Shown here piece after piece: positions 22,771 to 47,450 of a stretch of 64,000 bases of DNA (the first letter of the stretch is position 1; every line of letters begins with the position of its first letter). The notes under the pieces were generated by a model. It was not told the origin of the DNA, did no database searches, and saw only the letters and a list, made by a program, of their open reading frames with translations. The DNA is from Candidatus Aminicenantes bacterium (GTDB taxonomy: Bacteria > Acidobacteriota > Aminicenantia > Aminicenantales > UBA8522). The stretch lies in contig CAVSCD010000011.1 in assembly GCA_963726335.1 (NCBI GenBank), positions 787,449 to 851,448 on the forward strand. The letters run 5' to 3'. The position numbers and the translations under genes are program-made.

Positions 22771-22783
22771 GACGGACGCCGCC

Positions 22784-24135: not shown

Positions 24136-24138
24136 TCC

Positions 24139-24699
24139 TTATACGTACTCCCGGAGCAGCTCGGCCGACGGAGCCGAGATCAGGGCGCTCGCCACGAGCA
24201 TTCCCGACTCGGCCATGGCCGCCGCCGCCGCGTCCAGGCCGGCCCGGACCTCTCCCAGCCCGCCGCAGAAAAGCACCAGGCCTTTCCCGCCCATGGCCAT
24301 GGCCAGGTGGATGCGGAGAAGCTTGACCTCGGCGTTCTTGACGGCCTCGTCGGCGGCCTCCACGGCGCTGGCCGCCGAGAAGGTCTCGACCGCGCCGAGC
24401 GCTCCCGGCAACTCGTTGCCGAGCTCAACCGACAGGCTCAGGGCGGGCAAGACGTCGGGATGGAGGTTGCTGATGATCCGGTTCTCGATGATCGTGCCCG
24501 CGCCCGCCCGGGTGGCGGCTTCGAGCGAAGCTTTGACCGCGGATACGGAGCCGGCGACGACGATCAGGAACTTGCCCGAGCAGACCGGCCGGGCGATCAA
24601 GATGCTCACGGGCGCCGTTTTCAGGAGCGCGTCCTCGACCTGGTAGCCGAGGGCGATCGAGCTGAGCTCGAGAATTCCGATGTTGTTGATCTCGTCCAT
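24139..24699 (-). CDS. Tandem-domain BMC shell protein (BMC-T, PduT-like)
   Basis: 186 aa with two consecutive BMC (PF00936-like) domains. Confidence 0.8.
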   Translation of the reverse strand: MDEINNIGILELSSIALGYQVEDALLKTAPVSILIARPVCSGKFLIVVAGSVSAVKASLEAATRAGAGTIIENRIISNLHPDVLPALSLSVELGNELPGALGAVETFSAASAVEAADEAVKNAEVKLLRIHLAMAMGGKGLVLFCGGLGEVRAGLDAAAAAMAESGMLVASALISAPSAELLREYV

Positions 24700-24709
24700 G
24701 TTCCTTAGC

Positions 24710-26002: not shown

Positions 26003-26288
26003 GTGTAGATAAAATAGATGGTATGGACGATTTTTACAAGTCCCCCATGAAAGCCGGGGCCGGAGCTGACGGCGAGCCGCCGGCGGTCGCCCCCCATAAC
26101 CCCTTTGGGTGAGAGGGCAGGGGGCAATATCACCTTCAGAATCCTCGGGGGGGGTGATTGACCCTCCCATATGCCGAGGGCATCATGGGGCCGTCCTGAA
26201 AGAGAACCGTAGGCGTAGAGGAGATTTTCGGGTTCGATGCGAGAATTCGTGACACAATGCGGCGTCTATTTTACAGGAAGGGTCAATG

Positions 26289-28099: not shown

Positions 28100-29215
28100 A
28101 TGGCCAAGACCATTCAGGAGTTCCTGGAGATCGCCGTCAGGGAAGATGCCAGCGACCTCCACATCACGACCCATATCCCGCCGCGGCTCCGCGTCCACGG
28201 CGTCCTCAAGAACATCGAACATCCGGCGCTGACGCCGTCGGAGACCAAGCAGATCATCTACAGCGTCCTGACCGACCGGCAGAAGCGGCAGTTCGAGGAA
28301 AAGCTCGAGCTCGACTTTTCGTTCGGGCTCAAGGACCTGGGCCGGTTCCGGGCGAACGTCTTCCTGCAGAAGGGGGCCGTGGCGGGCGCCTTCCGCAGGT
28401 TCCTGCCCAACATGTGGAGCTTCGCCCAGCTCGGGATCCCGCAGCGGATCGCCCAGCTCTGCTACCTGCCCCGGGGCCTGGTGCTGGTGACGGGGCCGAC
28501 GGGCTGCGGGAAATCGACGTCGATCGCCTGCATGATCGACCACATCAACGTCGAGCGGGGCGTTCACATCGTGACCATCGAAGACCCGATCGAGTACTAT
28601 TTCGTTCCCAAGAAATCCATCATCAACCAGCGCGAGCTGTTCGTCGACACGCTGTCCTATGCCAACGCGCTCCGCTCGGTCCTCCGCGAGGACCCGGATG
28701 TCGTCTTCGTCGGCGAGATGCGGGACTACGAAACCGTCGAAGCCTGCCTCCGGGTGGCCGAGACGGGCCACCTCACCTTCTCCACCCTGCACACGAACTC
28801 GGCGGCCGAATCCATCTCCCGGATCATCGACATCTTTCCCGCCCAGTACCAGTCCCAGATCAGGATCATGCTCTCCATGTCTCTCGAGGCCGTCCTGACC
28901 CAGGCGCTGCTGCCCCGGGCGGACGGCAAGGGGCGGGTGCTGGCCATGGAGATTCTCATTCCCAATTCCGCCGTCCGGAACCTGATCCGGGAGAACAAGG
29001 TCCACCAGATCTACTCGACGATGCAGATGGGCCAGGAAAAGTACGGCATGCAGACGTTCAACCAGTCGCTGGCCGCCCTGTATTTCCGCAAGCTGATCAC
29101 GCTCGAGACGGCGATGAACATTTCGTCCTTCCCCGAGGAGCTGACCGACATCATCCAGAGGCGGGAGGGACTGAAACAGGCGTCGGTCACGGCTTCCCAG
29201 AAAGACCGGAAATAA
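28100..29215 (+). CDS. pilT: Type IV pilus retraction ATPase PilT
   Basis: 371 aa; Walker A GPTGCGKST, PilT-type AIRNLIRE motif. Confidence 0.9.
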   Translation: MAKTIQEFLEIAVREDASDLHITTHIPPRLRVHGVLKNIEHPALTPSETKQIIYSVLTDRQKRQFEEKLELDFSFGLKDLGRFRANVFLQKGAVAGAFRRFLPNMWSFAQLGIPQRIAQLCYLPRGLVLVTGPTGCGKSTSIACMIDHINVERGVHIVTIEDPIEYYFVPKKSIINQRELFVDTLSYANALRSVLREDPDVVFVGEMRDYETVEACLRVAETGHLTFSTLHTNSAAESISRIIDIFPAQYQSQIRIMLSMSLEAVLTQALLPRADGKGRVLAMEILIPNSAVRNLIRENKVHQIYSTMQMGQEKYGMQTFNQSLAALYFRKLITLETAMNISSFPEELTDIIQRREGLKQASVTASQKDRK

Positions 29216-29227: not shown

Positions 29228-30430
29228 ATGGCCACTTTTATTTGGAAGGGCAAGAACCGTTACGGCGACGCCGTGGGGGGAGAGCGCGTCGCCTCCTCGA
29301 TCGAAGAGGTGAAGGCGGCCCTGCAGAAGGAGCAGATCGCCGCCAGCTCCATCACCGCCAAGAGCGGCCGGTTCTCGATCCCGTTCCTGAAGCGGGAAAA
29401 GGTGAAGCTCAAGGAGCTGGCCGTCTACAGCCGGCAGCTGTCCGTCCTGATCGACGCCGAGCTGCCCCTGATGCAGAGCCTGGGCATTCTGGCCGAGCAG
29501 ACCAAGAACAAGTACTTCAAGCGCGTCATCACCACCATCCGCGAGGACGTCGAGGCCGGGTCGACGCTGAACCAGGCCAAGAGGAAATTTCCCAAGGTTT
29601 TCGACGACCTCTACTGCAACCTGATCGCCTCGGGCGAGCAGAGCGGCTCGCTGGACATCATGCTCCGCCGGCTGTCCGAGTACATCGAAAAAACGGTCAA
29701 GCTGCGGGCCAAGGTGAAGCAGGCGATGATCTATCCGAGCGCCATCCTCATCTTCTCGATCGTGGTGGCGATTTTCCTGCTCTGGAAGGTCATCCCCGTC
29801 TTCGCCTCCATCTTCATCGAGCTGGGCGCCGAGCTGCCCGCCCTGACCGCCTTCGTCATCGCGCTGAGCCGGTTTGTCGAGAAATACATTATCTTAATTG
29901 TCCTGGCCCTCATCGGCCTGGTGATCGGGTTCAGGTATTTCCGGAAAACCGAGCAGGGGCGCTGGGTCACCGACCGCTGGATCCTCAAGATACCGCTGTT
30001 CGGCGAGCTCCTGAGAAAGGTGGCCATCTCCCGGATCACCCGGACCATGGCCACCCTGGTGTCGGGCGGCGTGCCGATGCTCGAAGCCCTGCGGATCACC
30101 TCCACGACTGCCGGGAACATCATCCTCGAATCCGCCGTCATGAACGCCCGGCAGAGCGTCTCCGAGGGCAAGAGCCTGACCGACGCCTTCAAGGAGACAG
30201 GCCACTTCCCGTTCATGCTGACCCAGATGGTCAGCGTGGGCGAGGCGACGGGCACCCTGGACGAGATGCTCTCCAAGCTCGCGGATTTCTACGACGAAGA
30301 GGTCGACGCCCAGGTCTCCGCGCTCCTCTCGATCATGGAGCCGATACTGCTCATCTTCGTCGGCGGCATGGTCGGCTCGCTCGTCATCTCCATGTACCTG
30401 CCGATCTTCAGCCTGATGCAGCAGTTCTGA
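29228..30430 (+). CDS. pilC: Type IV pilus platform protein PilC (GspF family)
   Basis: 400 aa, two GspF repeats with three TM segments. Confidence 0.9.
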   Translation: MATFIWKGKNRYGDAVGGERVASSIEEVKAALQKEQIAASSITAKSGRFSIPFLKREKVKLKELAVYSRQLSVLIDAELPLMQSLGILAEQTKNKYFKRVITTIREDVEAGSTLNQAKRKFPKVFDDLYCNLIASGEQSGSLDIMLRRLSEYIEKTVKLRAKVKQAMIYPSAILIFSIVVAIFLLWKVIPVFASIFIELGAELPALTAFVIALSRFVEKYIILIVLALIGLVIGFRYFRKTEQGRWVTDRWILKIPLFGELLRKVAISRITRTMATLVSGGVPMLEALRITSTTAGNIILESAVMNARQSVSEGKSLTDAFKETGHFPFMLTQMVSVGEATGTLDEMLSKLADFYDEEVDAQVSALLSIMEPILLIFVGGMVGSLVISMYLPIFSLMQQF

Positions 30431-30436: not shown

Positions 30437-31730
30437 ATGAAGACCCGGAAGAGCCACGTCCTCTGGTTTATCCTGATCCGCCTGATCGCGGTCACCTCGA
30501 TCCTCGTCGCGGTCGTGATCATCCAGCACTCGACGACGGATTTCATCCCGCTCATCCCGTTCTATTTTCTCGTCGCTGCTGACGTACATCCTGTCGGTCG
30601 TCTATCTCGGGCTCTACCGTCTCGGGGAACGCTATGACCTCCAGGCCGTTCTCCAGACGGGGATCGACCTGCTGCTCATCACCGCCCTCGTCTATATCTC
30701 CGGCGGGCTGTCGGGCTCGCTCTACCTGCTGTACATCGTCTCGATCGTCGCCGCCAGCATCGTCCTGTCCAACCGCGCGGCCTACCTGACGGCCGGCGTT
30801 TCGGCCGTCCTGTTCGGGCTGCTCGTGGACGGCCTGCATTTCGGCGTCATTCCCTATTTCAGCGCCACGCAGTACAGCGAGCAATCCTTGGGCTTGATCA
30901 TCTTCACGATGTTCCTGGCCTGGGGCCTCTTTTTCCTGATGGCGGCCCTGGCCAACTATCTTACGGGCGGCCTCAGAAAAGCCCGGGAAGAGCTGCGCCT
31001 GGCCGAGAAAGAGCTCGAGATCAGCGACCGGCTGGCGAACGCCGGCCTGATCTCGGCCCAGCTGGCGCACGAGATCCGGAATCCCCTGGCCGCGATCTCG
31101 GGTTCGGTCCAGGTCCTGAAGGGCGATATCGCCCTCGACGACGACCAGCGGAAGCTCATGGACATCGTCGTCCGGGAATCCGCGCGCGTCTCCCAGTCGA
31201 TCGAGCAGTTCCTGGACCTGGCCTCGCCGGGCCGGCCGGACTTCAACTGGCTGAACCTGTCCGAGGTGGTGGACGAGACGCTCGAGGTGCTCAGGGCGGC
31301 CGGCGATCTCAACGGGCGGTACCGGGTCGACGGGAATTTCCGGGAGGTCCGGGTCGGGTACTACGGGAACGCCGGGCAGTTCAAGCAGCTCTTCTGGAAC
31401 CTGGCCAAGAACGGGCTCAAGGCCATGCCGGACGGCGGGACGCTCACCGTCGATCTATCGCTGGACAGGAAGAAGTCCGTCGGGATCCGGGTCGCCGACA
31501 CGGGCACGGGCATGACGGCGGAAGAGCGCGGGCACCTCTTCGAGCCGTTCTTCACCCGCTTCCAGAACGGCCGCGGCCTCGGCCTGGTCGTCGTCCGCCG
31601 CATCGTCGACGACTACGACGGGAGGATCGAGGTCCGGTCGGAGGCGGGGAGGGGCACGGAGTTCCTGTTGTCTTTCCCGCCCCGCGAGGCCAGGCCGAAG
31701 GCGGCGGCCAATCCTATCTCCGCCAACTAG
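30437..31730 (+). pseudogene. pilS: PilS-like membrane sensor histidine kinase, interrupted by a +1 frameshift
   Basis: ATG at 30437 opens a TM-rich N-terminus in frame 2; continues seamlessly in frame 3 from about 30565 (TTTT run) through HisKA (LAHEIRNPLAAISG) and HATPase_c (GTGMTAEERGHLFEPFF) to stop at 31730. Confidence 0.6.
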
Positions 31731-31739: not shown

Positions 31740-33157
31740 ATGGACAGCATCCTGATCGTCGACGACGAAAAGAGTCTGCTCGAGCTCCTCACGGTGGTCC
31801 TGAAGAAGGAAGGCTACAGGGTCAAGACCTGCCTGGCGGCCTCCCGGGCGTTCGAGGTTCTGGAGAAGGAAGAATTCGACCTGCTGATCTGCGATATCAA
31901 GCTGCCCGAGGTGAGCGGGATGGAGGTCCTGCGGTACGTGCGGGAAAACCGTCCGGAGATGCCCGTCATCATGATCACGGCCTACGGCAGCCTCAAGCAG
32001 GCGGTGGAAGCCCTGAAGGCCGGCGCCATCGATTATATCCTCAAGCCCTTTGACGTCGAAGAGCTCAAGATCATCGTCGCCAAGGAGCTCGAGAAGCGGC
32101 GGCTCAAGGAGGAGAACATCCTGCTCAAGCGCAACCTGCGCGAGAAGTACTCCTTCGAGAACATGATCGGCAAGAGCCAGGCCATGCAGGAGGTCTATAC
32201 CCTGATCGAGAAGTCCTCGGGGACGGATTCGACGGTGCTGGTCACCGGTGAGAGCGGGACGGGCAAGGAGATGGCGGCCCGGGCCCTACATCTCCTGAGC
32301 CGCCGGTCGGACAGCCCGTTCGTCTCGATCAACTGCGCCGCGCTTCCCGAGAACCTGCTCGAGAGCGAGCTCTTCGGCCACGCCCGGGGGGCGTTCACGG
32401 GCGCGGTCGCCGAAAAGAAGGGCATGTTCGAGGTCGCCCAACGGGGGACGCTCTTCCTGGACGAGGTCGGCGAGACCTCGCCCTGGACCCAGGTCAAGCT
32501 GCTGCGGGCGATCCAGGAGAGGAAGATCCGGCGGGTCGGGGGGACGGACGAGATCCCCGTCGATGTGCGGATCATCGCCGCCACCAACCATGACCTCAAG
32601 AAGAGGATCGAAGAGGGCAAGTTCCGGGAGGATCTGTTTTACCGGCTGAACGTCATCGCCTTCGAGATGCCGCCGCTGCAGAAAGCGGACCGAGGATATC
32701 CCGCTGCTGGTCAATCACTTCATGCAGAAGTACTGCCAGGGCATGGGGAAGAGGATGAAGCGGGTGGCGCCCGAAGTGATCGGCTATTTCGAGCTCTACG
32801 GTTGGCCGGGAAATGTGCGGGAGCTTGAGAATGTCATCGAGCGCGTCGTGGCCATCGAGGACCGGGAGACCGTCACCGCGGCCAGCCTGCCCCACGAGAT
32901 CACGACGCCGCCCAGAAGGGAGGCGGCGCGGCCGTCGATCCCGCCGGGGTTCAACCTGATGTCCCACATCGACGATGTCTCCAAGAGCTATATCCATGAG
33001 GCGAGGCAGCTGGCGGGCGGGCAACCTCAGGAAAACGGCCGGCATCCTCGGCGTCAGCTATCGCTCCCTGAGGCATCTCATCGACAAGTTCGGGCTCAGG
33101 GAAGCCGAGAGAGTGGAAAGGGTCGACGCCAGGGCTGAGTCGAAACCCCTGACCTAA
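31740..33157 (+). pseudogene. pilR: PilR-like sigma-54-dependent response regulator (REC-AAA+-HTH), interrupted by two +1 frameshifts
   Basis: REC domain (LIVDDEKSLL...DLLICDIKLPEVSG), AAA+ sigma-54 interaction domain (GESGTGKE, GAFTGA, FREDLFYRLNV) in frame 0; continues in frame 1 from about 32683 (FMQKYCQ...GNVRELENVIER) and in frame 2 from about 33015 (Fis-type HTH). Confidence 0.6.
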
Positions 33158-33269: not shown

Positions 33270-33285
33270 TGGCACGGAAATTGCT
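33270..33285 (+). promoter_or_regulatory. Sigma-54 (-24/-12) promoter upstream of pilin gene
   Basis: cTGGCACGgaaaTTGCTa matches the RpoN consensus TGGCAC-N5-TTGC exactly; about 75 nt upstream of pilin ATG, with SD AAGGAGGA at 33345-33352. Confidence 0.6.
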
Positions 33286-33359: not shown

Positions 33360-33896
33360 ATGCTTAAGAAGATGAGAGGTTTCACACTGATCGAGCTGCT
33401 CATCGTCGTCGCCATCATCGGCATTCTGGCAGCCCTGCTGATCCCGAACGCCCTGTCGGCCATCCAGAAGGCCAAGCAGAAAGGCACGATGAAGGACATC
33501 AACTCGATCGCCACGGCCATCACGGATTTCGTGACGGACAAGGGGACGGCTCCGGTTCAGTCCGGTGACCTCGTCGGCGGCAGCCAAATTTACACGGACC
33601 TGAGCGGGTTCTACCTCAAGGTTCTCCCGCAGAACGATCAGTGGGGCTCGCCCTTCAAGGTCTGGTGCGGTTCAGCAGCCGACGGCTCGTACTCCGGAAT
33701 CACGAACAACGCCGCTGATGACTTTGTCGTCGCCTCTATCGGAAGGGACAAAAGCCAGACCGCGATCGCCTTCAACCCCCTGGCTCCCACCACCGCTTAT
33801 TTCGACATCACCGGCATGACCAGCTTCAACCAGGACCTCGTGAATTGGGACGGCTCCTGGGTTCATGCCCCCAAGAGCGCTCAGCTCGGAACCTGA
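33360..33896 (+). CDS. Type IV pilin / GspG-like pseudopilin (prepilin with class III signal peptide)
   Basis: MLKKMRG|FTLIELLIVVAIIGILAA prepilin cleavage/N-methylation motif; GspG-like motif KVLPQNDQWGSPFKVW. Confidence 0.85.
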   Translation: MLKKMRGFTLIELLIVVAIIGILAALLIPNALSAIQKAKQKGTMKDINSIATAITDFVTDKGTAPVQSGDLVGGSQIYTDLSGFYLKVLPQNDQWGSPFKVWCGSAADGSYSGITNNAADDFVVASIGRDKSQTAIAFNPLAPTTAYFDITGMTSFNQDLVNWDGSWVHAPKSAQLGT

Positions 33897-33923
33897 TTAG
33901 AGCAAGAGAGCAAGCCTCGAACA

Positions 33924-33958
33924 GGGCGGCTGGTCGAAGGGCCGGCCGCCCTCTTTTT
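33924..33958 (+). terminator. Rho-independent terminator after first pilin gene
   Basis: GGGCGGC...GCCGCCC stem followed by TCTTTTT. Confidence 0.5.
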
Positions 33959-33997: not shown

Positions 33998-34546
33998 ATG
34001 ACCAGCACGAGACGCGGTTTTACATTGATCGAAATCTTGGTTGTTATTGTGATCCTCGGCATCCTCGCCGCCCTCCTTATTCCTCTGGCCATGGGCTCTA
34101 TTCAGAAGGCCAAGCAAAAAGGCACGCTGAGGGACATCAATTCCATCGCCGTCGCGCTCACGGATTTCGTCACCGATCACGGATCCGCGCCCTTCGGCGT
34201 CAGCGGACCGATCGTGGCCGGCAGCCCCCTGTACACAGCCGTCAGCGGATTCTACCTCAAGGTCCTGCCTCCGAACGACCAGTGGGGAACGCCGTTCAAT
34301 GTGTGGTGCGGGACGGCTGCCGATTCCTCCGGCTATGCCAACGTTACGGGGAATGGCATCGACGATTTTGTGATCTCTTCGTGGGGCCGCAACAAGAGTG
34401 TCGATGCGGTCGCCTTCAACCCGATGCAACCGACAACGGCTTACTTTGAGATCACCGGATTGGCCAGTTTCGACGAAGACCTCATCAGTTGGAACGGCTC
34501 CTGGATCCATGTCCCGAAGAGCGCTCAGCTCGGAGATTCGACCTGA
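33998..34546 (+). CDS. Type IV pilin / GspG-like pseudopilin, paralog of the preceding gene
   Basis: MTSTRRG|FTLIEILVVIVILGILAA; the two pilins share long identical blocks (KAKQKGT, SGFYLKVLP, NDQWG, WNGSW, PKSAQLG) with the same architecture. Confidence 0.85.
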   Translation: MTSTRRGFTLIEILVVIVILGILAALLIPLAMGSIQKAKQKGTLRDINSIAVALTDFVTDHGSAPFGVSGPIVAGSPLYTAVSGFYLKVLPPNDQWGTPFNVWCGTAADSSGYANVTGNGIDDFVISSWGRNKSVDAVAFNPMQPTTAYFEITGLASFDEDLISWNGSWIHVPKSAQLGDST

Positions 34547-34619
34547 TCTTTCCGCTTTGCATCCCGGCACCAGCGACGCTATAATGGGCAGCCGGTGAAC
34601 CCAGGCGGCGGTATGATCC

Positions 34620-36398
34620 ATGATCACAACTCCATCGCCACCGCCTCTTGAGCTTGAGGCGGCCTCAAATCCACATACGACCCGGGAACGTCGGGCGATC
34701 TATCTGCTGCTTCTTGTCGCGGTCAACCTCGCGCTTTTTCTGCCGTCGATGAGCGGCGATTTCCTATGGGACGACAAGTACTTCATCAGCGAAAATCCAT
34801 ACATCCAGGGGGGCGGGTTCCTGCGGAGCTTTCTTTTCAGCCCGTTCGGCGGGTTCTCCGGTACGGACGAAAACAGCGTGCGGCAGGACAGGAACATGCT
34901 GTTTTACCGTCCTCTTGTCTCCCTCTCCTACTGGCTGGACTTCAGGGCTTGGGGGCTGAACCCGGCGGCGTTTCACCTCACGAACATCCTGATCCACGCC
35001 ATCAATGTGATGGCGTTCTTTTTTATCCTGATCGCCCTGTCCCTCAGCCCACGCTCGGCTTTCCTCGGGGCGTTTCTTTTTTCCGTTTATCCTCTTCACT
35101 TCGAGAACGTGTCCTGGATCTCGGGGCGAACCGACCTGCTGGCGTTTCTTTTCGCCGCATTATCGATCCTCTTTTTCATCAGGCACCTTAAGACGCCGTC
35201 CCGACTCAACCTTCCGGTTTCGGGCGCAGCCTATTTCCTGGGGCTCCTCTGCAAGGAGAACGTGGTCCTTTTGCCCCTGGTGTTCCTCTTCTTCCTTTAT
35301 AAAAAGGAAGGGAAAGGCGGCCCGCCCGCCCACCTCCTCTTCCGCCTCTGGCCTTATGCCCTGGCTTTGCTGAGCTGGTTCATGCTCAGGTGGAACGCCC
35401 TGGGCTCCGCTTCGATCGGATATTCCGGAAGAGGGGCCCACGATTTCCTGGCGGCTATTGGGTTCTACAGTTGGAGGATGATCTTCCCCTTCCGGCTGAG
35501 CCTGACCGTCGATTCCCCACCGGTCATGGAGAGCCCGGTTTTCGGGGTCTTGGGGGCAGTCCTCGTGGCGGGCTTCGCCCTGTCTCTCTGGCAAGCGAGG
35601 CGGAGGAGCCTGTCGCGAGGCTGGCCTTTCTGGTCGTTTTTAGGCTATGGCCTGTTTCTTCTGCCGTCCGTCTTGGTCATCTTCTCTGCGTCGGCCCTCT
35701 CACTTATGGCCTGGCGGTTTCTGTATCTTCCATCGGCGGTATTGATCGGTGCGCTCGTCTATCTTCTGGCGGACCGCTTCAAACTCAAAGCGTTGGGCGC
35801 AGGAGTGATCGTACTTCTGGCCGCCCTCTATGCGGCCGAGATCTATCCGAAAAACGCCCTCTTCGGCCAAGAAGAGACCCGCTTCTGGCTCAGCATCAAG
35901 AGTCCGGATCATGAGGATGTCATCGCCCGGTTCAATATCGCGGTCAAGGCGTTGCCTACGGACGAGAAAGAGGCGCTGCGGCTGTTTGATTCTATCCTGA
36001 GCCAGACAGGACGCCCCTCATATCGGTACTGGAAGACCTCGATTTTTGAAGAGCTTGGCGTATATTATGCTTTTCGAAAGGATTTCTCCAAGGCGGAGCG
36101 CTATTTCCATGAGCTTTTCGGCATGGAGCCCCGGCCATCGCTGCGGCTCCGCTTCAACTACGCATATTATTTCGCCTTTGCGGGAAAAAGGGACGAGGGC
36201 GAAAAAATCGTCCTGGAGACGCTGCGCGAGTTCCCGCAGAGCCATTTCGCTTTGACCCAGGCCGCGAAATTTTATGTGATCGTCCGGGATTACGGGAAAG
36301 CGGCAGACCTCTATGCCGTTGACTTCAGGCTTTTCCGAACCCGACAGTCCCGGCTGCTGGCTGAAGAAGCAGGCCGTTTCCGGCAGGGCATCCGCTAG
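34620..36398 (+). CDS. GT-C fold membrane glycosyltransferase of TMTC/PMT-like type with C-terminal TPR repeats
   Basis: 592 aa; about 11 TM segments; loop-1 acidic motif FLWDDKYF after TM1 as in PMT/ArnT/TMTC enzymes; C-terminal TPR-like region. Confidence 0.55.
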   Translation: MITTPSPPPLELEAASNPHTTRERRAIYLLLLVAVNLALFLPSMSGDFLWDDKYFISENPYIQGGGFLRSFLFSPFGGFSGTDENSVRQDRNMLFYRPLVSLSYWLDFRAWGLNPAAFHLTNILIHAINVMAFFFILIALSLSPRSAFLGAFLFSVYPLHFENVSWISGRTDLLAFLFAALSILFFIRHLKTPSRLNLPVSGAAYFLGLLCKENVVLLPLVFLFFLYKKEGKGGPPAHLLFRLWPYALALLSWFMLRWNALGSASIGYSGRGAHDFLAAIGFYSWRMIFPFRLSLTVDSPPVMESPVFGVLGAVLVAGFALSLWQARRRSLSRGWPFWSFLGYGLFLLPSVLVIFSASALSLMAWRFLYLPSAVLIGALVYLLADRFKLKALGAGVIVLLAALYAAEIYPKNALFGQEETRFWLSIKSPDHEDVIARFNIAVKALPTDEKEALRLFDSILSQTGRPSYRYWKTSIFEELGVYYAFRKDFSKAERYFHELFGMEPRPSLRLRFNYAYYFAFAGKRDEGEKIVLETLREFPQSHFALTQAAKFYVIVRDYGKAADLYAVDFRLFRTRQSRLLAEEAGRFRQGIR

Positions 36399-36406
36399 CC
36401 GCCCTT

Positions 36407-38461
36407 CTATTGCCAGACGGGCTTCAGCTGATCGAGGTATTGGGTCTTGACCCGGTTCGTGAGATATATGATCTCGGGTTGGGACGGCTTGAGGCCCAGC
36501 GAGCGGCCGAAATAGTCCAGGGCGGGCTTGGCCCTGAGCAGGTTGCTCAGGTAAAAGTAGCCGATTTTGTTCAGGACCTCCGGTTCACGGGCGTGAGCCT
36601 GGGCAACGCCGGCGATGATTTTCTCCCCCTCTTCGGGCAGGCCCCGGTAATAATCGAGCCTGGCCACGAGAAGCTGGTGATCGACGTCCAGGCTGGGGAG
36701 CGTTTGGATAAGGGCTAAGGCGGCGTCGAAGTTCCGGTACTGAATGTAGAAGCTCATCTTCTTCTCGAACGGCAGCTTCTCAAACTCCGCACGGGCTAAG
36801 GCCGTATCGGTCCTGGCAAAATACGCCGGATAGACCGCCTTCATCGTCATCTCCAGTGCGGCCGCCTTATCCCAGAGTTCACGACTCAGGTACAGGTCAT
36901 AGAGCCGGCTGTAGGATTCCTTGACCGTGCTAAAGCGGGCGAGGTTGTCCTGGAGCGAAACCTCAGCGGCCTGAATCTCTCCTCGGGATGTCTGGATTTC
37001 CGCCTTCTTCTCGTTGATCTGATAGCGGATGAAGGGCGCGATTTTGACCTTCGGATCGTTCTCGAATTCCTCGATGCTGTTGAGCCAGCGGAAGGCGCTC
37101 GGGTAATCCGCCCGGGCGATCTCGATATCGGTGTAGAGCGAGCTCACCAGGATGGCCGTCTCCCTTTTCATGTCCAGGGACAGGGTGCGGTTCAGGGAGA
37201 GCTCGGCCGAGAGATAATCCTTGTTTTCGAAGGCCGCCTTCCCCGATTGGAAGAGGACATACGCGTCCCGGGGCCAGGACTGGCGCGCCCTCTCCCAGAA
37301 AAGCGTTTTGTTTTTATAAGCGCCTCCGTTTAAGACAATGGCGGGGATGAACAGGACGAGGAGAAGGAAGGTGACCACGAACCGCGGCCTCTCCCGGATT
37401 CCCTTGAGCGCAGCCGCCAGGAGCCAGACGAGCGCGAGCCCGGAAACCAGCATGTAGCGGGCGTATATTTGGTAGGGGAAGATATTGGTGAAGACCAGCA
37501 GGACATGAGCTCCCGTAAAAACCGCCAAGAGAACGGTGGGAATCAGGTATCTTTTGGCCTTGGTTGAGCGAAGGAGCAGGAAAACCAGGAGCAGTCCCGC
37601 GGCGATCCCGAATCCTACATAGAAAGCCTTCATGGCCTCCTGGACCGATGCAAACTCGTCGTACCGCAGCGGGAAAACCATGGTCCTGAAGTAATAGCCC
37701 AGCGTCCCGATCGTGGCCTTGATATCCTCGCCGATGTCGGCGCGCAGGACGAACTTGATGCTCTTGAGGTCGAGGACAAAGATTTTCAGAAAGAAGAAGA
37801 CGCCCAGCAGGCCGAGGTTGGCCAGGTGGTAGAGCGGGGAGATCCTCCTTCGCTTGAGCGCCTCATAAAGGATGAGAACCGGGAAGAAAAAAAGGAACGT
37901 CTCCTTGGAGAGAATTCCCAGGAAAAAGCTCGCGGCTGAAAGCCAGAGATAGAATGTCCGGTGTTTCTTAAGGGAGAGGTCGAGAAAGAGAAAACAGAGC
38001 ATCGCCCAAAGAAACATCAGCAGGTCGCCCCGCCCGACCACCCAGACGATGTTGTCCATGTTCAGGGGGTAGAGCGCGAAGAGCAGCGTGACGATCTCGG
38101 GGAAATAGGGATACTCGGACTGCTTCTTCAGGAAACAAAAAAGGAAAATCAGCCCAAAGAGGTAGATCAACAGATTCGTCAGGCGCAGGGTGACATTCTG
38201 GATCCCCCAGAGTTTGTTTTCCAAAAGAAACGACGCCGTGAGCAGGGGACGATAATAGTGGTCCTGTCCCTGGACGCCGAGCTGCTCGCTGAAATAGCCG
38301 AATTTGAAGGCCGAGCTGATCGGATGATTCTCAATAAAGAGGACGTTGTGCTTGAAATACATCTCATCATCCCAGATCAGATCATAGTTGAACGTCTTCC
38401 AGTAGATTCCGAAGAGGATAACGACCAGAGCGAACAGGAAAACCAGGTCTTTCTTCAGCAT
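36407..38461 (-). CDS. GT-C fold membrane glycosyltransferase of TMTC/PMT-like type with C-terminal TPR repeats (paralog, convergent)
   Basis: 684 aa; N-terminal TM1 then LIWDDEMYF loop motif, about 11 TM segments, long C-terminal TPR region. Confidence 0.55.
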   Translation of the reverse strand: MLKKDLVFLFALVVILFGIYWKTFNYDLIWDDEMYFKHNVLFIENHPISSAFKFGYFSEQLGVQGQDHYYRPLLTASFLLENKLWGIQNVTLRLTNLLIYLFGLIFLFCFLKKQSEYPYFPEIVTLLFALYPLNMDNIVWVVGRGDLLMFLWAMLCFLFLDLSLKKHRTFYLWLSAASFFLGILSKETFLFFFPVLILYEALKRRRISPLYHLANLGLLGVFFFLKIFVLDLKSIKFVLRADIGEDIKATIGTLGYYFRTMVFPLRYDEFASVQEAMKAFYVGFGIAAGLLLVFLLLRSTKAKRYLIPTVLLAVFTGAHVLLVFTNIFPYQIYARYMLVSGLALVWLLAAALKGIRERPRFVVTFLLLVLFIPAIVLNGGAYKNKTLFWERARQSWPRDAYVLFQSGKAAFENKDYLSAELSLNRTLSLDMKRETAILVSSLYTDIEIARADYPSAFRWLNSIEEFENDPKVKIAPFIRYQINEKKAEIQTSRGEIQAAEVSLQDNLARFSTVKESYSRLYDLYLSRELWDKAAALEMTMKAVYPAYFARTDTALARAEFEKLPFEKKMSFYIQYRNFDAALALIQTLPSLDVDHQLLVARLDYYRGLPEEGEKIIAGVAQAHAREPEVLNKIGYFYLSNLLRAKPALDYFGRSLGLKPSQPEIIYLTNRVKTQYLDQLKPVWQ

Positions 38462-38587
38462 GCTGCGACTCCAATCAGTGTGCGTGATGGCGATGACGAA
38501 GAGATTTTATTCACGGATTCTATATCGATAGGCACAGCTCATTATAGGAAAACACAACCGGCGAGGCAATCCTGCCTTGCGGGAATA

Positions 38588-38604: not shown

Positions 38605-39345
38605 GTGAGGACCATCTTCCTCGGCCTCGTCTATCTCGTCCTCCTCCTCTTCCTTTCCGTCGCTCTCCTCATTTGCTGGCCGCTCGGCGTGCGCGACCCG
38701 CTCCTGGCGATCGCCAAGTGGGCCATGGACCTGGGACTGAAGATCCTGGGGATCCGGGTCGGGGTCTCGGGACGCGAGGCGATCGATAAGGGATCGCGGT
38801 ACGTTTTCATGGCCAACCATCTCAGCTTTATCGACGGACCGATGCTCTTCCGCTTCATTCCCCAGTCCGTGCGCGTCATTCTCAAGAAGTCGATCTTCCG
38901 GATCCCCGTCCTCGGCCAGGGAATGAGATTCGTGGGATTTGTCCCGGTGGACAGGAAGGGGGTCCGGGGCGGCCGGCAGAGCATCGATGTCGCCGCGCGC
39001 CTGATGCGGGAGCGCGGCTACTCTTACCTGATCTTTCCCGAGGGGACGAGGAGCCGCGACGGGCGGCCCCAGGCTTTTCGCCGGGGCGGGTTCTTCCTGG
39101 CCATCGAGGCCGGCGCCCCGATCGTTCCGGTCAGCATCGCCGGGACCTTCGAGCTCATGCCCAAGGGATCGATGTTCGCCCGGTCAGGCCCGGTTTGCGT
39201 GCGGTTCCACCCGCCCATTTCATCCCAGGGCTTTGGGCCGGCGAATATGGGCGAGCTCATGGACACGGTGAAGGCCGCGATCGAGTCGGGGCTGGCCGAG
39301 CCGGAGCGTCCGGCGGCTAATCTTCGCCCAACACGATCTTCTTGA
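38605..39345 (+). CDS. plsC: 1-acyl-sn-glycerol-3-phosphate acyltransferase
   Basis: 246 aa; acyltransferase motifs ANHLSFIDGPML (HX4D-like) and FPEGTRS. Confidence 0.85.
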   Translation: MRTIFLGLVYLVLLLFLSVALLICWPLGVRDPLLAIAKWAMDLGLKILGIRVGVSGREAIDKGSRYVFMANHLSFIDGPMLFRFIPQSVRVILKKSIFRIPVLGQGMRFVGFVPVDRKGVRGGRQSIDVAARLMRERGYSYLIFPEGTRSRDGRPQAFRRGGFFLAIEAGAPIVPVSIAGTFELMPKGSMFARSGPVCVRFHPPISSQGFGPANMGELMDTVKAAIESGLAEPERPAANLRPTRSS

Positions 39346-41659
39346 TCTCGGCCGCGCCCGCCGCCCCGCTGTTGAAGAGATAACAGGCCGTCGAGTCGAG
39401 CAGCCGGCCGAAGAAACCCTTCTGAAGCTCCAGCCGGTCTTCGCTCGCGAACAGCAAATGGGGATTGTAATACGGCTGGGGTTTGGCGGGGCTGAGGCTC
39501 TTCCTGGCGCCCGCCGCTTCGCCCGCCTCGAGGATCCGAAGGGCCTCGTCCTTCTTCAGCCGCACCGCGGCCGGAGAGATCGCATCGTTCCTCAGGATGA
39601 ATAGCCAGGCGAGCTCGGTCCGCTTGACGTGGCCCGCCTTGCCGCCGATCCACGCCGGGTCGAGCATGGCGTGAGCGCCCTTGGAAGCGCGGTAGCAGTA
39701 GGGAGAACCCCTGTCCAGGCGGCAGTCATCGAGCCTCAGGCAGCCGGCGTCCTGGCAGTCTTCTTTGTGGATGATAATATTTTCGCACCGGCTGGCGTCG
39801 AAGAGCGGAGCCAGCTGCGGGAACGACTCGACGGTGTTGGTCGGAAGATAAAGCTTCCGCTCGACGCATTCGGCCAGTGCCCGTCCCCCGCCGAACCGCA
39901 CCAGGACGATGTCGTTGCTCTGGAGCCGGAACCGGCGGTCGCCGAGGAGCTCGAAGAACAGTTCGGTCTTGTTTGTTCCGGCGGGCCCGACGAGCACCAG
40001 GCCTTTGCCGCCCGCGTCCGCCGACATGCCCCGGATGCCGTGAACGCCGAACAGGCGCTCTCCCGCGTCGAGGACCAGGCCGAGCGCCAGGCTCCGGAGC
40101 GGGCCGTAGTTATCGGCGTTGACGATGACGCCGGTCTTCGTCTCCGAGTTGTAGAAGGCGCGGGGCTCCCGCCCGGGGATCCCGTCCACGGCGAAGATGA
40201 TGCCGTGCGGCTCCAGGTCGGCTTCGAGCTGCGCCGGATACCAGTTCTCCACCCAGAAGTCGTAGAGATGGGGGACGTTCGTCCGGAGCTGGACGATGAC
40301 GCCGGAGATGTTGGCGTTCCACTCGTAATAGTTTTCGTGGCTGAGGTGGCTTTCCATCTCGGCGACGAGCGCGTCTCTCAGCTTGACGGTGGTCGAGGAA
40401 TCCACCGGCACCTGTTTTTTGACCCGGGTGACGGCGTTCTGCAGCGCGACCCGCTTCACGCTCTTGGGTGTCTTCAGCCGGGAGACGGCCTCGATGATCC
40501 GGTCCATCCCTTTTTCCAGGTTGGCCATCGAGGTCGCGGTCGACAGCCGGATGTGGGCGTCGGCCCCGAAGGAGTCACCCGGGACGATGGCCACCCGGGC
40601 CTCCTTCAGGAGGTAGTAGGCCATGCCGTAGGAGTTCCGGATCAGTGTGCCGTTGGCTTCCTTATCGTAGTATTGCGAGACGTTGGGGAAGAGGTAGAAC
40701 GCGCCCTGGGGTTTGAAACAGGAGATGTTGGGGATGGCGCTCAGGCGCATATGGCAGTAATTGCGGCGGCGCTGGAACTCGGAGATCATCCGGGAGATCT
40801 CGTGCTGCGGGCCGCTCAGGGCTTCCAGGCTCGCCTGCTGCGAGATCGAGCAGGCGTTCGAGGTTGAGTGGCTCTGGATCTTGCTCATCCCGTTGATCAC
40901 CTCCGCGGGCCCGAGGGCGTAGCCGATCCGCCAGCCTGTCATAGAGTAGGATTTGGAGACGCCGTTAATCAGAATGGTTTTCTTTTTGATCTCCTCGCCC
41001 AGGGAGGCGAAGCTGACGTACGGGAAATCGTCGTAGATGAGCTTGCCGTAGATCTCGTCGGCGATGACGTAGATGTCCTCGCCGCGGATCACCTCGGCCA
41101 GGGCCTCGAGCTGGGACTTGTTGTAGGCCGCGCCCGTCGGGTTGGACGGATTGTTGAGAATGAGGGCCTTGGTGGCGGGGTTGATCGCGGCTTTCAAGTC
41201 GTCGGGAGAGAGGAGAAAACCGTTCTCCTCCTTGGTGGGGATGAACACGGGTTTACCGCCGGAGATGGCCACCGCCTGTGGATAGGTGACCCAATACGGG
41301 GCGGGGATGATCACCTCCTCGCCTTCGTTGACCAGCGCCTGGATGAGGTTGAAGAGCGAGTTCTTGGCGCCGCTCGAGACGATGACCTGGTTGGGCTCGT
41401 AGCTGAGCCCGTAGTCCTCCTTCATCCGGGCGATGATGGCCTTCTTCAGGGCGGGGATCCCCTCGTTCTCCGTGTACTTCGTGAAGTTCTGCTGGATGGC
41501 GCGGATACCCGCCGCCTTGATGTTTTCCGGTGTGGGGAAGTCGGGCTCGCCCACGCTCAAGTCGACGATGTCGATCCCATCGGCCTTCATGGCCCTGGCC
41601 TTGGCCGAGATCTTGAGCGTCGGCGAGGCGCCGATCTGGTTGACTTTTTCTGAGATCAT
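39317..41659 (-). CDS. Fusion protein: class I/II aspartate-family aminotransferase (N-terminal about 395 aa) + HprK/PEP-carboxykinase-like P-loop domain (C-terminal about 380 aa)
   Basis: N-terminus is a complete fold-type I aminotransferase (SKSYSMTGWRIGY PLP-lysine region); C-terminus has the HprK/PEPCK-like pattern GVHGIRGMSADAGGKGLVLVGPAGTNKTELFFELLGDRRFRLQSNDIV; single uninterrupted 780-aa ORF. Confidence 0.6.
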   Translation of the reverse strand: MISEKVNQIGASPTLKISAKARAMKADGIDIVDLSVGEPDFPTPENIKAAGIRAIQQNFTKYTENEGIPALKKAIIARMKEDYGLSYEPNQVIVSSGAKNSLFNLIQALVNEGEEVIIPAPYWVTYPQAVAISGGKPVFIPTKEENGFLLSPDDLKAAINPATKALILNNPSNPTGAAYNKSQLEALAEVIRGEDIYVIADEIYGKLIYDDFPYVSFASLGEEIKKKTILINGVSKSYSMTGWRIGYALGPAEVINGMSKIQSHSTSNACSISQQASLEALSGPQHEISRMISEFQRRRNYCHMRLSAIPNISCFKPQGAFYLFPNVSQYYDKEANGTLIRNSYGMAYYLLKEARVAIVPGDSFGADAHIRLSTATSMANLEKGMDRIIEAVSRLKTPKSVKRVALQNAVTRVKKQVPVDSSTTVKLRDALVAEMESHLSHENYYEWNANISGVIVQLRTNVPHLYDFWVENWYPAQLEADLEPHGIIFAVDGIPGREPRAFYNSETKTGVIVNADNYGPLRSLALGLVLDAGERLFGVHGIRGMSADAGGKGLVLVGPAGTNKTELFFELLGDRRFRLQSNDIVLVRFGGGRALAECVERKLYLPTNTVESFPQLAPLFDASRCENIIIHKEDCQDAGCLRLDDCRLDRGSPYCYRASKGAHAMLDPAWIGGKAGHVKRTELAWLFILRNDAISPAAVRLKKDEALRILEAGEAAGARKSLSPAKPQPYYNPHLLFASEDRLELQKGFFGRLLDSTACYLFNSGAAGAAEIKKIVLGED

Positions 41660-43096: not shown

Positions 43097-43473
43097 ATCC
43101 TCCTGTGCATCAGCCCCGGACAGAGCGGGGCGAGGCCCGCGGATGGGCGGCCGCGTTCAACCTGAATTTAGGAGAATATTAGCTTTAAGGACTGGTCAAG
43201 TCAAGGCTTCCGCCGTCGTCGGAAGCCGCCTTTCATGAACGGGCCGATTTCTCTCCGGTGAGAACCAGGGAGGCCTTTTGAGGGGGTCATGGTCAGCGCG
43301 GCTTCTCACCCCCGGCGATGAGAAGGTTTAGCAAAACTCACCCCGGCGTTCATCGAGCCCGACGATTGACCGGCGGCCGGGAATGAATGACAATACGGCT
43401 GAAATGGAGAGCCCGCGTTTCAGTGAACGCTGTAAAATGGCCGGCCCCGAGGGATCGACACAAGGAGTCAGGG

Positions 43474-44465
43474 ATGGGGAATAAGACCTTGCTGTCAGTC
43501 GTCGTGCCCATCTGCTCCGAAGAGGAGATCATCCCTGAATTCTATGCGCGGCTGAAGTCCGTGCTCTCGGGACTGAGCCAGGCTCTCGATCATGAGATCA
43601 TCTTCGTCGATGACGGGAGCCGTGACGGATCCATGGACCTCCTCAAGCGCCTAGCGCAAGACGACAAGGATATCCGGGTCATCAGCTTCTCAAGGAACTT
43701 CGGTCACCAGTTCGCCATCACCGCCGGCCTGGACCATGCCTCCGGCGACGCCGCTGTGATCATCGACGGCGACCTCCAGGACCCGCCCGAGGTCATCCCC
43801 CAAATGATCGGCAAATGGAGCGAAGGCTGCAAGGTCGTTTACGGGGTCAGGGAAAAAAGGCGGGGCGAAAACCCGGTCAAGCTCGTGACGGCCAAGCTGT
43901 TCTACAGGCTCATCAGGCTCCTGAGCGACACCGATCTGCCGCTCGACGCAGGGGATTTCAGGCTCCTGGATGCCAAGGTCATCGAGGCTCTTAAAAGATT
44001 CGGGAGGAAAACCGCTACATCAGGGGGCTCGTGAGCTGGGCGGGCTTCCGCCATTGCGGCCTGCCTTACCGGCGGGATCCCCGGTATGCCGGAAAGACGA
44101 AATATACCTTCAAAAAAATGGTCAAGTTCGCCGTCGACGGGATCCTGAGCTTTTCCGACCGCCCGCTCAAGATCACCGCTTATCTTGGGTTCCTGATCAC
44201 GATGGTCTCGTTCTTGGTCGGGCTGAGGATTGCCATCGGCAAGCTCCTCCATCCGGACATGCTCGTCTCCGGCTGGACCTCCATGATCCTGGCCGTGCTG
44301 TTTATCGGCGGCATCCAGCTCGTCTCGCTCGGCATCCTGGGCCTTTATGTCGGCCGCCAATACCGGGAAGTGAAGAGGCGGCCACTCTATATCATCGCCG
44401 AAAAGACGGGTTTTGACGTGGGCCGGCCGCCGGGCAGCCTGGGAGAAGGGCTTGACAGCCGATGA
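43474..44465 (+). pseudogene. GT2 polyprenyl-phosphate sugar synthase (GtrB/ArnC/DPM1-like), interrupted by a -1 frameshift
   Basis: ATG 43474 with SD AAGGAG; N-terminal GT2 domain (LSVVVPICSEEEI...FVDDGSRDGS...DGDLQDPPE) to stop at 44034; continues in another frame (EENRYIRGLVSWAGF..., two C-terminal TM helices) from about 44003 (GGG run). Confidence 0.6.
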
Positions 44466-45305
44466 CCGGATCCGAAGGCCCCCTGATTTCCGTCGGCATT
44501 CCCGCTTTTAATGGCGAGCGCTATATCGGCCGGGCCATCGAATCCGTCTTAGGCCAATCCCACGCCCATTTTGAGCTCGTCATCGTCGACGACCATTCCG
44601 AGCGACAATACGGCCGGCGTTATCAAGGGTTACCCCGACCCGAGGATCAGGGTCATGGAAAATCCGTCACGTTTGGGCCAGATGGGAAACTGGAACAAAA
44701 CCCTTCATGAAGCCAGGGGGACGTACATAAAGCTCCTCCCCCAGGACGACCTCCTCTATCCGACCTGCCTGGAAAGGCAGGTCGAAGCTTTCGCCAAGCC
44801 GGAGAACCAGGGCGTCGCTCTGGTCTGCTGTGCGCGCGACATCATCGACCACTCCGGGCGGGTCATCCTCAGGCGGTCTTTCCGGAGGAGGAAAGGCCGG
44901 CTGGCAGGAGTCAGGGCCGTAAAGGAGAGCATCCGGGCGGGGACTAACCTAATCGGTGAACCGGCCGGGGTCCTCTTCAGGTCCGCGGCCGTCGACAAGG
45001 TCGGCCTCTTTGACGACCGGAATTTCTATGTCATCGACCTGGATTATTGGTGCCGGGCGCTTCTGACCGGCGACCTCTACATCATACCCGAACCGCTGTG
45101 CGCCTTCCGGGTGTCCGGAGGCTCCGCGAGCCTCAGGGTCGCGTCCTCGCAGGACAAGGATTTTCGAAACTTCATCAGGTTCCTGGCCCGGGACGAGCGC
45201 TTTCACCTCACGGGCGTGGATGGCTTCCGGGGCAAGATCAAGGCCTTCGCCAATCGACGGCTCCGGCAGCTCTTCTACAAGATGATCGTGAAGGAAGCGC
45301 GATGA
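44462..45305 (+). pseudogene. GT2 family glycosyltransferase, interrupted by a +1 frameshift
   Basis: ISVGIPAFNGERYIGRAIESVLGQSHAHFELVIVDDHS in frame 2, continuing DNTAGVIKGYPDPRIRVMENPSRLGQMGNWNK... in frame 0 from about 44600. Confidence 0.55.
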
Positions 45306-46784: not shown

Positions 46785-47450
46785 ATGTCCCCTGTGCCCG
46801 CAGAGCCGCCAACGTATGACGAAAAATACTATCACGACCTTTACATCAAACCCGCCTTCACGCGCCTCGGCCTGAGCAAGCTGTACTATCTTTGGATCGC
46901 CTTTTTCTGTATCAAGCGGGCGGCTGGCCTGAAGCGGGGGGCGCGCGTCCTTGATTTCGGTTGCGGGATAGGCAACCTGGTCTGGGCCTTGAGGAAGATC
47001 GGATTGGAGGCTTATGGGATTGAACCCTCGGAGCCGGCCCGGCGGTACAGCCGCGCTCCGCGGCATTGCCGTTATGAAGACTCCCGCCGGCTGCCTTTTG
47101 AAAACAGGTCCTTTGATCTCGTTTACAGCCACGAGGTCTTGGAGCATTTATCACCCGGCGATTTGCGGCCCGCCCTCCACGAGATCTCGCGGGTCAGCCG
47201 AGGGAGGACCCTCCACATGATCTGCGTCAAGGAGCGGGGGGCATTCGTCAGCCAGGAACCGACGCATCTGATTATTGAGTCCGAGTCATGGTGGAAAGGG
47301 CTGTTTGAAAACCAGGGCTACAAGGTCAGGACGGGGAATCCTGTGTATTTTTTCCCTTTCATTCCCTACTTGTTCGCTCGGACGCTGAATGTCCTCGCCA
47401 TCGGGAAGGGCTATTTCCTGCTGGACGAGCGCCGTGGCGGGAAGCTCTAG
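46785..47450 (+). CDS. Class I SAM-dependent methyltransferase
   Basis: VLDFGCGIGNL glycine-rich SAM-binding motif, Methyltransf_11-like; SD GGAAGGAG upstream. Confidence 0.75.
   Translation: MSPVPAEPPTYDEKYYHDLYIKPAFTRLGLSKLYYLWIAFFCIKRAAGLKRGARVLDFGCGIGNLVWALRKIGLEAYGIEPSEPARRYSRAPRHCRYEDSRRLPFENRSFDLVYSHEVLEHLSPGDLRPALHEISRVSRGRTLHMICVKERGAFVSQEPTHLIIESESWWKGLFENQGYKVRTGNPVYFFPFIPYLFARTLNVLAIGKGYFLLDERRGGKL

Follow-up and report, generated by a model that had tools for sequence, protein, structure and literature searches.

What do two convergent genes for membrane glycosyltransferases do when they lie directly behind the pilin genes of a type IV pilus cluster? This question is raised by a stretch of 64,000 nucleotides (the window) from a Candidatus Aminicenantes bacterium (GCA_963726335.1, contig CAVSCD010000011.1, positions 787,449 to 851,448 of the forward strand). 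An earlier sequence-only reading proposed that these genes, here called A and B, encode TMTC/PMT-like GT-C glycosyltransferases with tetratricopeptide repeat (TPR) tails, and that they form a protein O-glycosylation system that possibly modifies the pilins. Here we report that A and B are, as predicted from sequence and structure models, TMTC/PMT-type inner-membrane GT-C glycosyltransferases, and that their linkage to pilin genes is conserved well beyond chance. We tentatively favour, at just short of even confidence, a role like that of the pilin glycosyltransferase TfpW, in which A and B would be periplasm-facing O-glycosyltransferases that depend on polyprenyl-phosphate sugars and that use their TPR domains to recruit the adjacent pilins before these leave their membrane anchorage. 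The four genes at the centre of this proposal are listed below.

33360 to 33896, plus strand: pilin 1, 178 amino acids (aa); N_methyl E 1.5e-8
33998 to 34546, plus strand: pilin 2, 182 aa; N_methyl E 2e-8; paralogue of pilin 1
34620 to 36398, plus strand: gene A, predicted GT-C/TPR glycosyltransferase, 592 aa; identified by Pfam PMT_2, invariant residues and topology
36407 to 38461, minus strand: gene B, predicted GT-C/TPR glycosyltransferase, 684 aa; identified as a paralogue of A, by a TPR profile and by invariant residues

The open reading frames of A (592 aa) and B (684 aa), their convergent orientation and their acidic motifs (LWDDKYF at residues 49-55 of A, IWDDEMYF at residues 29-36 of B) are as first described, and 8 nucleotides separate the two stop codons. 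The pilin genes are likewise where they had been placed, directly upstream of A; both carry the N_methyl motif and are GspG/PilA-like, and A starts 73 nucleotides past pilin 2. The G+C content at third codon positions (0.72 for A, 0.78 for B) is usual for genes of the window and is consistent with A and B being real genes. Hundreds of homologues of A and B align over approximately 100% of their length at 44-98% identity, nearly all of them from metagenome-assembled genomes of Candidatus Aminicenantes and from sediment or groundwater metagenomes.

A and B are predicted to have a GT-C fold and a periplasmic TPR domain

Searches with hidden Markov models (HMMs) were used to establish the family relationships of the two proteins. 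A matches Pfam PMT_2 (PF13231) marginally above the cutoff (27.1 versus 26.1 bits). No Pfam GT-C match was obtained for B alone (none to PMT_2 at E ≤ 1), and precomputed PF13231 matches are carried by some of its family homologues. Neither protein matches the DUF1736 (PF08409) HMM at E ≤ 1, and neither matches the Wzy_C HMM. B aligns with A in BLASTP at 30% identity over 280 residues (E 1e-28), and comparison of the two profiles gives a probability of 99.9% (E 5.6e-36, 538 aligned columns). Judged from these alignments, B is a full-length paralogue of A. The B-family TPR profile matches the consensus TPR with E 9e-14. Of the profile matches suggested as a check in the sequence-only reading, PMT_2 for A and TPR were therefore recovered, and PMT_2 for B and DUF1736 for either protein were not. 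The description ‘TMTC/PMT-like’ is accurate for the build of A and B, whereas HMM searches do not place them formally among the TMTCs.

A sequence-profile search of the PDB returned TPR matches only and no GT-C match, and the evidence for the fold is thus drawn from structure models. In structure comparison, the model of B scores highest with Pmt4 (19.9), followed by ALG12 (18.7), Pmt2 (18.4), STT3B (17.9), ArnT (15.6) and PglB (15.4), and Foldseek results for A are in agreement. The best structural matches of both proteins are general protein O-mannosyltransferases. Homology, motifs and models together support the GT-C identity originally proposed.

Topology was predicted by combining the helices of the AlphaFold2 (AF2) models with the distribution of lysine and arginine under the positive-inside rule. 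A is predicted to have 11 transmembrane (TM) helices (residues 18-414) followed by a periplasmic TPR domain at approximately residues 419-592. In B the 11 predicted TM helices span residues 2-382, and the periplasmic TPR domain, at approximately residues 385-676, is longer than that of A. Lysines and arginines of the short loops lie mostly inside (14 versus 5 for A, 17 versus 9 for B), with the N-terminus inside, and this distribution assigns the loop 1 DD motif, as well as the TPR domain, to the periplasmic side. The topology check proposed at the outset thus puts the acidic motif in the first periplasmic loop and the TPR tail in the periplasm rather than in the cytoplasm.

Catalytic motifs of the TMTC enzymes are retained in both families

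Human TMTC1-4 share a series of motifs comprising M1 (DD) and M2 (SHKSYRP) in loop 1, M3 (RxD) in loop 2, M4 (KE(T/Q)) in loop 3, M5 (DW) in loop 4 and M7 (ERxxY) in loop 5 (PMC7801869). Conservation of the corresponding positions was scored in 42 A-family and 41 B-family sequences. Residues W50-D51-D52, F95-x-R97-P98, R170-x-D172, K212-E213 and R366-x-x-Y369 are invariant in all 42 A-family sequences, as is Y283-x6-P290-F291 in periplasmic loop 4. Invariant in the 41 B-family sequences are W30-D31, Y69-Y70-R71-P72, R144-x-D146, K186-E187 and R335-Y336, and D32 is kept in 35 of them. Both families therefore retain M1, the YRP part of M2, M3, M4 and M7. M5 is partly kept: the Trp is absent, and the Asp is present in 37 of the 42 A-family sequences and in 33 of the 41 from the B family.

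The predicted active site faces the periplasm and is made up of the DD and YRP motifs of loop 1, RxD of loop 2, KE of loop 3, the Asp of loop 4 and RxxY of loop 5. Because TMTC motifs M1 to M4 and M7 are invariant, both proteins appear catalytically competent. The notion that B is a degenerate, inactive copy was considered and rejected, since the B family shows no variation at its catalytic residues. Positions that contact the donor phosphate in homologues are conserved as well (for A, K212/E213 and R366; for B, K186/E187 and R335), and both proteins may accordingly use a polyprenyl-phosphate-sugar donor.

Linkage of A and B to pilin genes is conserved among related loci

A complete core cluster for a type IVa pilus lies upstream of the pilin genes, on the same strand as the pilins and A.

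26359 to 28086, plus strand: pilB-like assembly ATPase; T2SSE E 4.5e-138, MshEN E 8e-23; position kept in related loci
28100 to 29215, plus strand: pilT-like retraction ATPase, 371 aa; Pfam T2SSE E 3.9e-48
29228 to 30430, plus strand: pilC-like platform protein; Pfam T2SSF E 3.8e-65
30437 to 31730, plus strand: pilS-like sensor kinase; HisKA and HATPase_c; frameshift near 30575
31740 to 33157, plus strand: pilR-like sigma54-dependent response regulator; Response_reg and Sigma54_activat; frameshifts near 32700 and 33050

The order pilB-pilT-pilC-pilS-pilR, one or more pilins, A and convergent B is conserved throughout Candidatus Aminicenantes and is kept in relatives down to 44-50% identity. 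Loci with the same order include L001 (50% identity), L002 (Aminicenantes RBG_16_63_16) and L125, and locus L124 has pilS-pilR-pilin-A without B. Homologues of A were surveyed in 85 loci, 80 from a metagenome scan and five others, of which 64 extend at least 900 nucleotides upstream of the gene. One or two pilin genes (173-183 aa) lie directly upstream on the same strand in 41 of these 64, and a convergent B is present in 24 of the 27 pilin-linked loci with enough downstream sequence. When the look-up was instead anchored on the pilins, a TMTC-like GT-C gene was found beside them in each of three newly sampled loci on long contigs. Two of these carry A and B, and the third (L206) carries B alone, convergent directly on the pilin; with the B profile this gene scores 896 bits, and with the A profile 130.

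The presence of B varies with pilin number. Two pilins occur with B in 18 loci and one pilin with B in two, whereas one pilin without B is seen in three and two pilins without B in none. These locus counts are phylogenetically non-independent.

The A family proper is a small group, sharply separated at the top of the superfamily search. In an exhaustive profile search, 86,170 cluster representatives were recovered at E ≤ 1e-3; their number falls to 56,909 when the threshold is E ≤ 1e-10 and to 4,385 when it is E ≤ 1e-30. The only name recovered for distant members is ‘tetratricopeptide repeat protein [Acidobacteriota]’, and a tblastn search of plasmids with A gave one weak haloarchaeal match.

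A proposed mechanism for pilin glycosylation

The fold, motifs, predicted topology and conserved linkage of A and B lead us to infer the following for donor type, acceptor and paralogue roles. A polyprenyl-phosphate-sugar donor, once flipped to the periplasmic leaflet, would give up a single sugar, which would be passed to Ser/Thr hydroxyls in the globular domains of both neighbouring type IV pilins. Transfer would occur before pilus assembly, while the pilins are still held in the inner membrane by their N-terminal helix, and the TPR domain would select the folded pilin as acceptor. The same mechanism has been proposed for Pseudomonas TfpW.

The existence of two paralogues invites a more speculative extension, in which each might serve one of the co-duplicated pilins, act at different sites, or join the other in a heterodimer like Pmt1-Pmt2. 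That pilins, A and B constitute a glycosylation unit of two enzymes and two substrates, whether as such a heterodimer or with one paralogue per pilin, we regard as unlikely.

Comparison with known glycosyltransferases

TfpW is the pilin arabinosyltransferase of Pseudomonas (para)aeruginosa group IV strains and has been proposed to be a glycan polymeriser. In P. aeruginosa group IV (Pa5196/PA7) it is a protein of 646 aa with its N-terminus in the cytoplasm, 11 TM helices, a GT-C fold for which ArnT served as the model, an essential DDX within periplasmic loop 1, a conserved YX6PFX7P motif within periplasmic loop 4 and an extensive periplasmic TPR domain at its C-terminus; tfpW lies directly 3' of pilA, and its loss abolishes pilin glycosylation (bioRxiv 10.1101/2020.04.19.049825). 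Compared with this published description of TfpW, A and B share the 11 TM helices, the cytoplasmic N-terminus, the DD of loop 1 and the periplasmic TPR domain, and A likewise directly follows a pilin gene. Its Y283-x6-P290-F291 occupies the same loop 4, and B has Y257-x6-P264-L. TfpW belongs to Gammaproteobacteria rather than Aminicenantes, the locus described here has two convergent paralogues and usually two pilins, and neither tfpX nor genes for D-arabinofuranose (DprE1/DprE2) were seen in the window.

Genome contigs were also scanned with the Pseudomonas-type pilin N-terminus FTLIELMIVVAIIGILAAIAIPQYQ. At least 120 proteobacterial loci were found, and neither an A/B homologue nor a downstream YX6PFX7P protein was present among the matches listed. 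Among these listed loci (L003-L122), none has a GT-C/TPR gene after the pilin. Most of them carry PglL/TfpO-like genes, and in many the pilin is directly followed by a polytopic protein of 450-650 aa with a W[HY]D[EQ]QR-type motif (PglL/TfpO-like).

PglL and TfpO (PilO) resemble A and B as polytopic inner-membrane enzymes that serve periplasmic pilin glycosylation, with tfpO directly 3' of pilA. However, they belong to the Wzy_C/O-antigen-ligase family and transfer preassembled oligosaccharides from undecaprenyl pyrophosphate, and the A and B profiles do not match the PglL/TfpO-like proteins downstream of proteobacterial pilins. The A/B system had been called distinct from the known pilin glycosylation routes. 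This holds for PglL/TfpO, given that A and B lack Wzy_C, but is not supported for TfpW, which has the same architecture and the same gene position as A.

Among eukaryotic enzymes, TMTC1-4 (GT105) share with A and B the 11 TM helices, the cytoplasmic N-terminus and a lumenal or periplasmic TPR domain. Motif positions in B are nearly identical to those of TMTC3 (D31/D32, R71/P72, R144/D146 versus 143/145, K186/E187 versus 188/189). Unlike TMTCs, A and B lack a DUF1736 match, have the DW of M5 reduced to Asp, are bacterial, carry shorter TPR domains and have pilin neighbours rather than cadherin-type substrates. PMT/POMT enzymes (GT39; Pmt1-Pmt2, Pmt4) are linked to A by its PMT_2 match and have the acidic pair right after TM1. 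They form homo- or heterodimers, a possible parallel to the A/B pair. PMTs nevertheless differ in carrying a lumenal MIR beta-trefoil in loop 5 and no C-terminal TPR domain, and identity is only 11-13%.

A further pilin-linked enzyme with TPRs is Ogt of Synechococcus elongatus (TPR plus GT41), which is encoded beside pilA genes and is needed for PilA glycosylation (PMC9306852). Ogt differs from A and B in being a soluble enzyme with an N-terminal TPR domain and a GT41 (GT-B) domain that uses nucleotide sugars, with no membrane GT-C domain. In the literature, we found no other description of a pilin-linked GT-C/TPR enzyme, and none for Aminicenantes.

The pilins and signals for their expression

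Pilin 1 has a class III signal peptide (...RG|FTLIELL) and matches the GspG and PilA models with scores under their cutoffs. It is likely the major pilin. Its family is highly conserved, and the protein is 100% identical to one encoded on a public contig. Across loci, the pilins mostly sort into ‘distal’ and ‘proximal’ orthologue clades. The following expression signals were located around the pilin genes, A and B.

33270 to 33285, plus strand: sigma54 (-24/-12) promoter TGGCACGGAAATTGCT, upstream of pilin 1
33923 to 33952, plus strand: strong intrinsic terminator 3' of pilin 1; 13-bp stem with 10 G-C pairs, T run
34556 to 34585, plus strand: sigma70-like match TTTGCA-18-TATAAT just 5' of A; consensus match only, 10/12 positions
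38541 to 38569, minus strand: sigma70-like match TTGCCT-17-TATAAT 5' of B; consensus match only

The sequence TGGCACGGAAATTGCT is a perfect sigma54 promoter and the sole match in the window, where 0.02 would be expected by chance. Of 35 related loci, 31 have a strict or relaxed sigma54 motif 75-139 nucleotides 5' of their first pilin, and in none does one lie between the two pilins.

Candidate sugar-donor genes downstream of B

The sequence-only reading also connected A and B with polyprenyl-phosphate-sugar synthase genes nearby. The genes downstream of B encode a PlsC-like acyltransferase, an aminotransferase fusion of 780 aa and a flotillin, and are followed by a glycosylation island, RNase PH, lpxL and lpxK. 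The island encodes two GT2 enzymes, a B12-radical SAM enzyme, a methyltransferase, a third PMT_2 GT-C protein that lacks TPRs, a DPM1-like GT2 and an epimerase. Two of its genes are considered individually.

43387 to 44465, plus strand: ArnC/GtrB-like polyprenyl-phosphate GT2; Glycos_transf_2 E 3e-30; frameshift near 44030
47447 to 49204, minus strand: third GT-C, TPR-less, 585 aa; PMT_2 31.8 bits

The GT2 genes at approximately 43387 and at 49271 are 5-11 kb from B. The one at 43387 to 44465 is split, and the open reading frame that follows it encodes a typical C-terminal half with two TM helices; this GT2 is a possible donor synthase. The GT2 at 49271 adjoins the third GT-C and the epimerase near lpxL/lpxK, and more likely serves the modification of lipid or lipopolysaccharide (LPS).

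The island is variable among related loci. In L124 it is missing, such that the flotillin gene is directly followed by the epimerase gene, and pilin and A are kept. In L001, B is followed by a heptose-type set of genes for nucleoside diphosphate sugars and by a GT2 with a C-terminal TM domain, and in L002 and L206 by extra PMT_2 and YfhO GT-C genes. A donor pathway is thus plausible and usually nearby, with no particular synthase specifically tied to A and B. The synthase genes named in the sequence-only reading do exist, but their link to A and B is weak, given an island that is variable and absent in L124.

The third GT-C, the DPM1-like GT2 and an NAD-dependent epimerase form a set (47447-50920, minus strand) beside RNase PH, lpxL and lpxK. 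This set looks like an ArnT-type system for lipid or LPS modification rather than a part of the pilin module. Inclusion of the third GT-C and the GT2 genes in the A/B system was rejected as unproven, as the A/B profiles do not match the third GT-C, the island is absent in L124, and it adjoins lpxL/lpxK. A TPR protein encoded at 15285-17111 was rejected as a further candidate because it is not a GT-C protein.

Weighing alternative acceptors and functions

Because pilin linkage is conserved beyond chance, pilin O-glycosylation, as originally suggested, is a reasonable hypothesis for A and B. Several observations nevertheless weigh against it, and many of them would fit a different proposal, namely that A and B are periplasmic enzymes that transfer glycosyl (e.g. 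mannosyl) groups to hydroxyls of other proteins or of a broader range of them, for example proteins that are secreted, in the outer membrane or S-layer-like, and that their place beside pilins is inherited gene order. Gene order within one phylum can persist through descent alone. Among the 64 A-like genes surveyed, 23 have no directly adjacent pilin and sit in varied contexts, which indicates that the family is not obligatorily pilin-linked. B is also absent from these 23 loci with the exception of L204, where a pilin lies 3.5 kb upstream of the A-like gene. The pilin-unlinked genes fall into clades of their own, mostly of low GC, and their neighbours are unrelated and, apart from those of the L123 gene, not conserved. 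A belongs to a very large superfamily whose members' substrates are almost all unassigned, and the closest structural matches are, as noted, general protein O-mannosyltransferases. No Ser/Thr-rich tract or C-terminal extension was found in the pilins, where the sequence-only reading had advised looking for Ser/Thr-rich loops, and the conserved Ser/Thr residues are scattered, leaving no obvious acceptor tract. A and B each have a sigma70-like match of their own, and a separate sigma54 promoter and terminator serve pilin 1, such that co-transcription of A with the pilins is possible at most. Even the resemblance to TfpW is imperfect, as the distal Pro of the loop 4 motif is at x8 in A and is not conserved. 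Lastly, pilin O-glycosylation, though the best-supported function, is one that we infer. We nonetheless consider broader targets a somewhat unlikely explanation. Pilin adjacency is maintained across 44-97% identity and in three configurations (A with B, A alone, B alone), B co-occurs with a second pilin, TfpW provides a precedent, and A-like genes without a pilin neighbour could act in trans, as does the unlinked pglL of Neisseria.

The sugar might alternatively be passed to a non-protein acceptor, for example a lipid, LPS/lipid A or a pilus-associated exopolysaccharide, with the TPR domain docking to the pilus machinery or to the polymer. The lpxL and lpxK genes and the additional GT-C and GT2 genes of the neighbourhood fit this idea, as does the proposal that TfpW itself polymerises glycan. 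However, the best matches and the whole motif set belong to the protein-modifying PMT/TMTC branch, the nearby glycan and LPS genes vary among genomes while the pilin-A-B module is constant, and TPR domains accompany protein acceptors in TMTC, OGT and TfpW; we therefore judge a non-protein acceptor to be distinctly unlikely. Very improbable is a model in which A, B or both are inactive and the TPR domains serve as pilus-assembly or pilotin-like factors of the PilF/PilW/Tgl type. Its attraction lies in weak matches of the TPR domains to PilF/PilW structures and in the automatic annotation of some B homologues as ‘PilF’ or ‘TadD’. These structural matches are no better than those to other TPR proteins, and neither family varies at any catalytic or phosphate-binding residue, which argues that enzyme activity has been retained.

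Significance of the pilin-A-B module

GT-C/TPR proteins are common, and TfpW is a pilin-linked example already known. New here are the phylum, the conserved association between a pair of paralogues and a pair of pilins, and the clear set of TMTC-type motifs, from which a common grouping of TfpW-like enzymes and TMTCs is suggested. Bacterial GT-C/TPR proteins number in the tens of thousands, with acceptors essentially unassigned apart from that of TfpW, and the pilin-A-B module offers a concrete, testable pair of enzyme and substrate for this huge uncharacterised family. If A and B do glycosylate the pilins, then TfpW-type pilin glycosylation would extend to a distant, uncultured phylum, and TfpW would be tied to the TMTC branch of protein O-mannosyltransferases, with a bearing on pilus decoration in abundant sediment bacteria. 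Were the two-enzyme unit also to hold, a substrate would for the first time be assigned within the bacterial TMTC-like GT-C/TPR superfamily beyond TfpW, and this would suggest that TfpW, bacterial GT-C/TPR proteins and eukaryotic TMTCs constitute one ancient family of TPR-guided O-glycosyltransferases. If pilin glycosylation is not confirmed, the locus would be an ordinary example of a common enzyme family without an assigned substrate.

Other features of the window and of related loci

Five apparent frameshifts relative to intact orthologues were noted in the window: near 30575 in pilS, near 32700 and 33050 in pilR, near 44030 in the GT2 gene, and near 44600 in a second GT2 gene (44462-45305). 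A tblastn search with the intact L002 orthologue of PilS switches from frame 2 to frame 3, and one with PilR of L002 spans three frames. Either the assembly contains indels at these places or the pilus regulators are truly decaying. A, B and both pilin genes are free of frameshifts.

Some of the related loci have distinctive arrangements. In L206 (7001-13895), two pilins and B only are followed by two YfhO-like GT-C genes and a GT2 gene. L002 (9832-17549) has genes for an extra PMT_2 protein, a 503-aa membrane protein and YfhO inserted after B. In L204 (1985-12780), a pilin gene precedes genes for four large polytopic proteins, including the A-like gene and a B-like gene. The pilin-unlinked A-like gene of L123 (10001-12233; 46% identity) is followed by a small PilZ-domain gene.

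The 780-aa protein encoded downstream of B (39317-41659, minus strand) combines a class I/II aminotransferase N-terminal half with a 390-aa C-terminal half that has no Pfam match. The same fusion is found beside the flotillin gene in L002, L124 and L207. Between mutL and pilB lies a bacterial microcompartment (BMC) locus (17789-26170, minus strand) with genes for a class II aldolase, three EutN/CcmL vertex proteins, an aldehyde dehydrogenase, three BMC-H proteins, one tandem BMC protein, acetate kinase, PduL phosphotransacylase and an RnfC/Nuo51-like protein. A ComEC-like DNA-uptake channel (57429-59840, minus strand; Competence, Lactamase_B and DUF4131 domains) is encoded in the window along with the pilus cluster.

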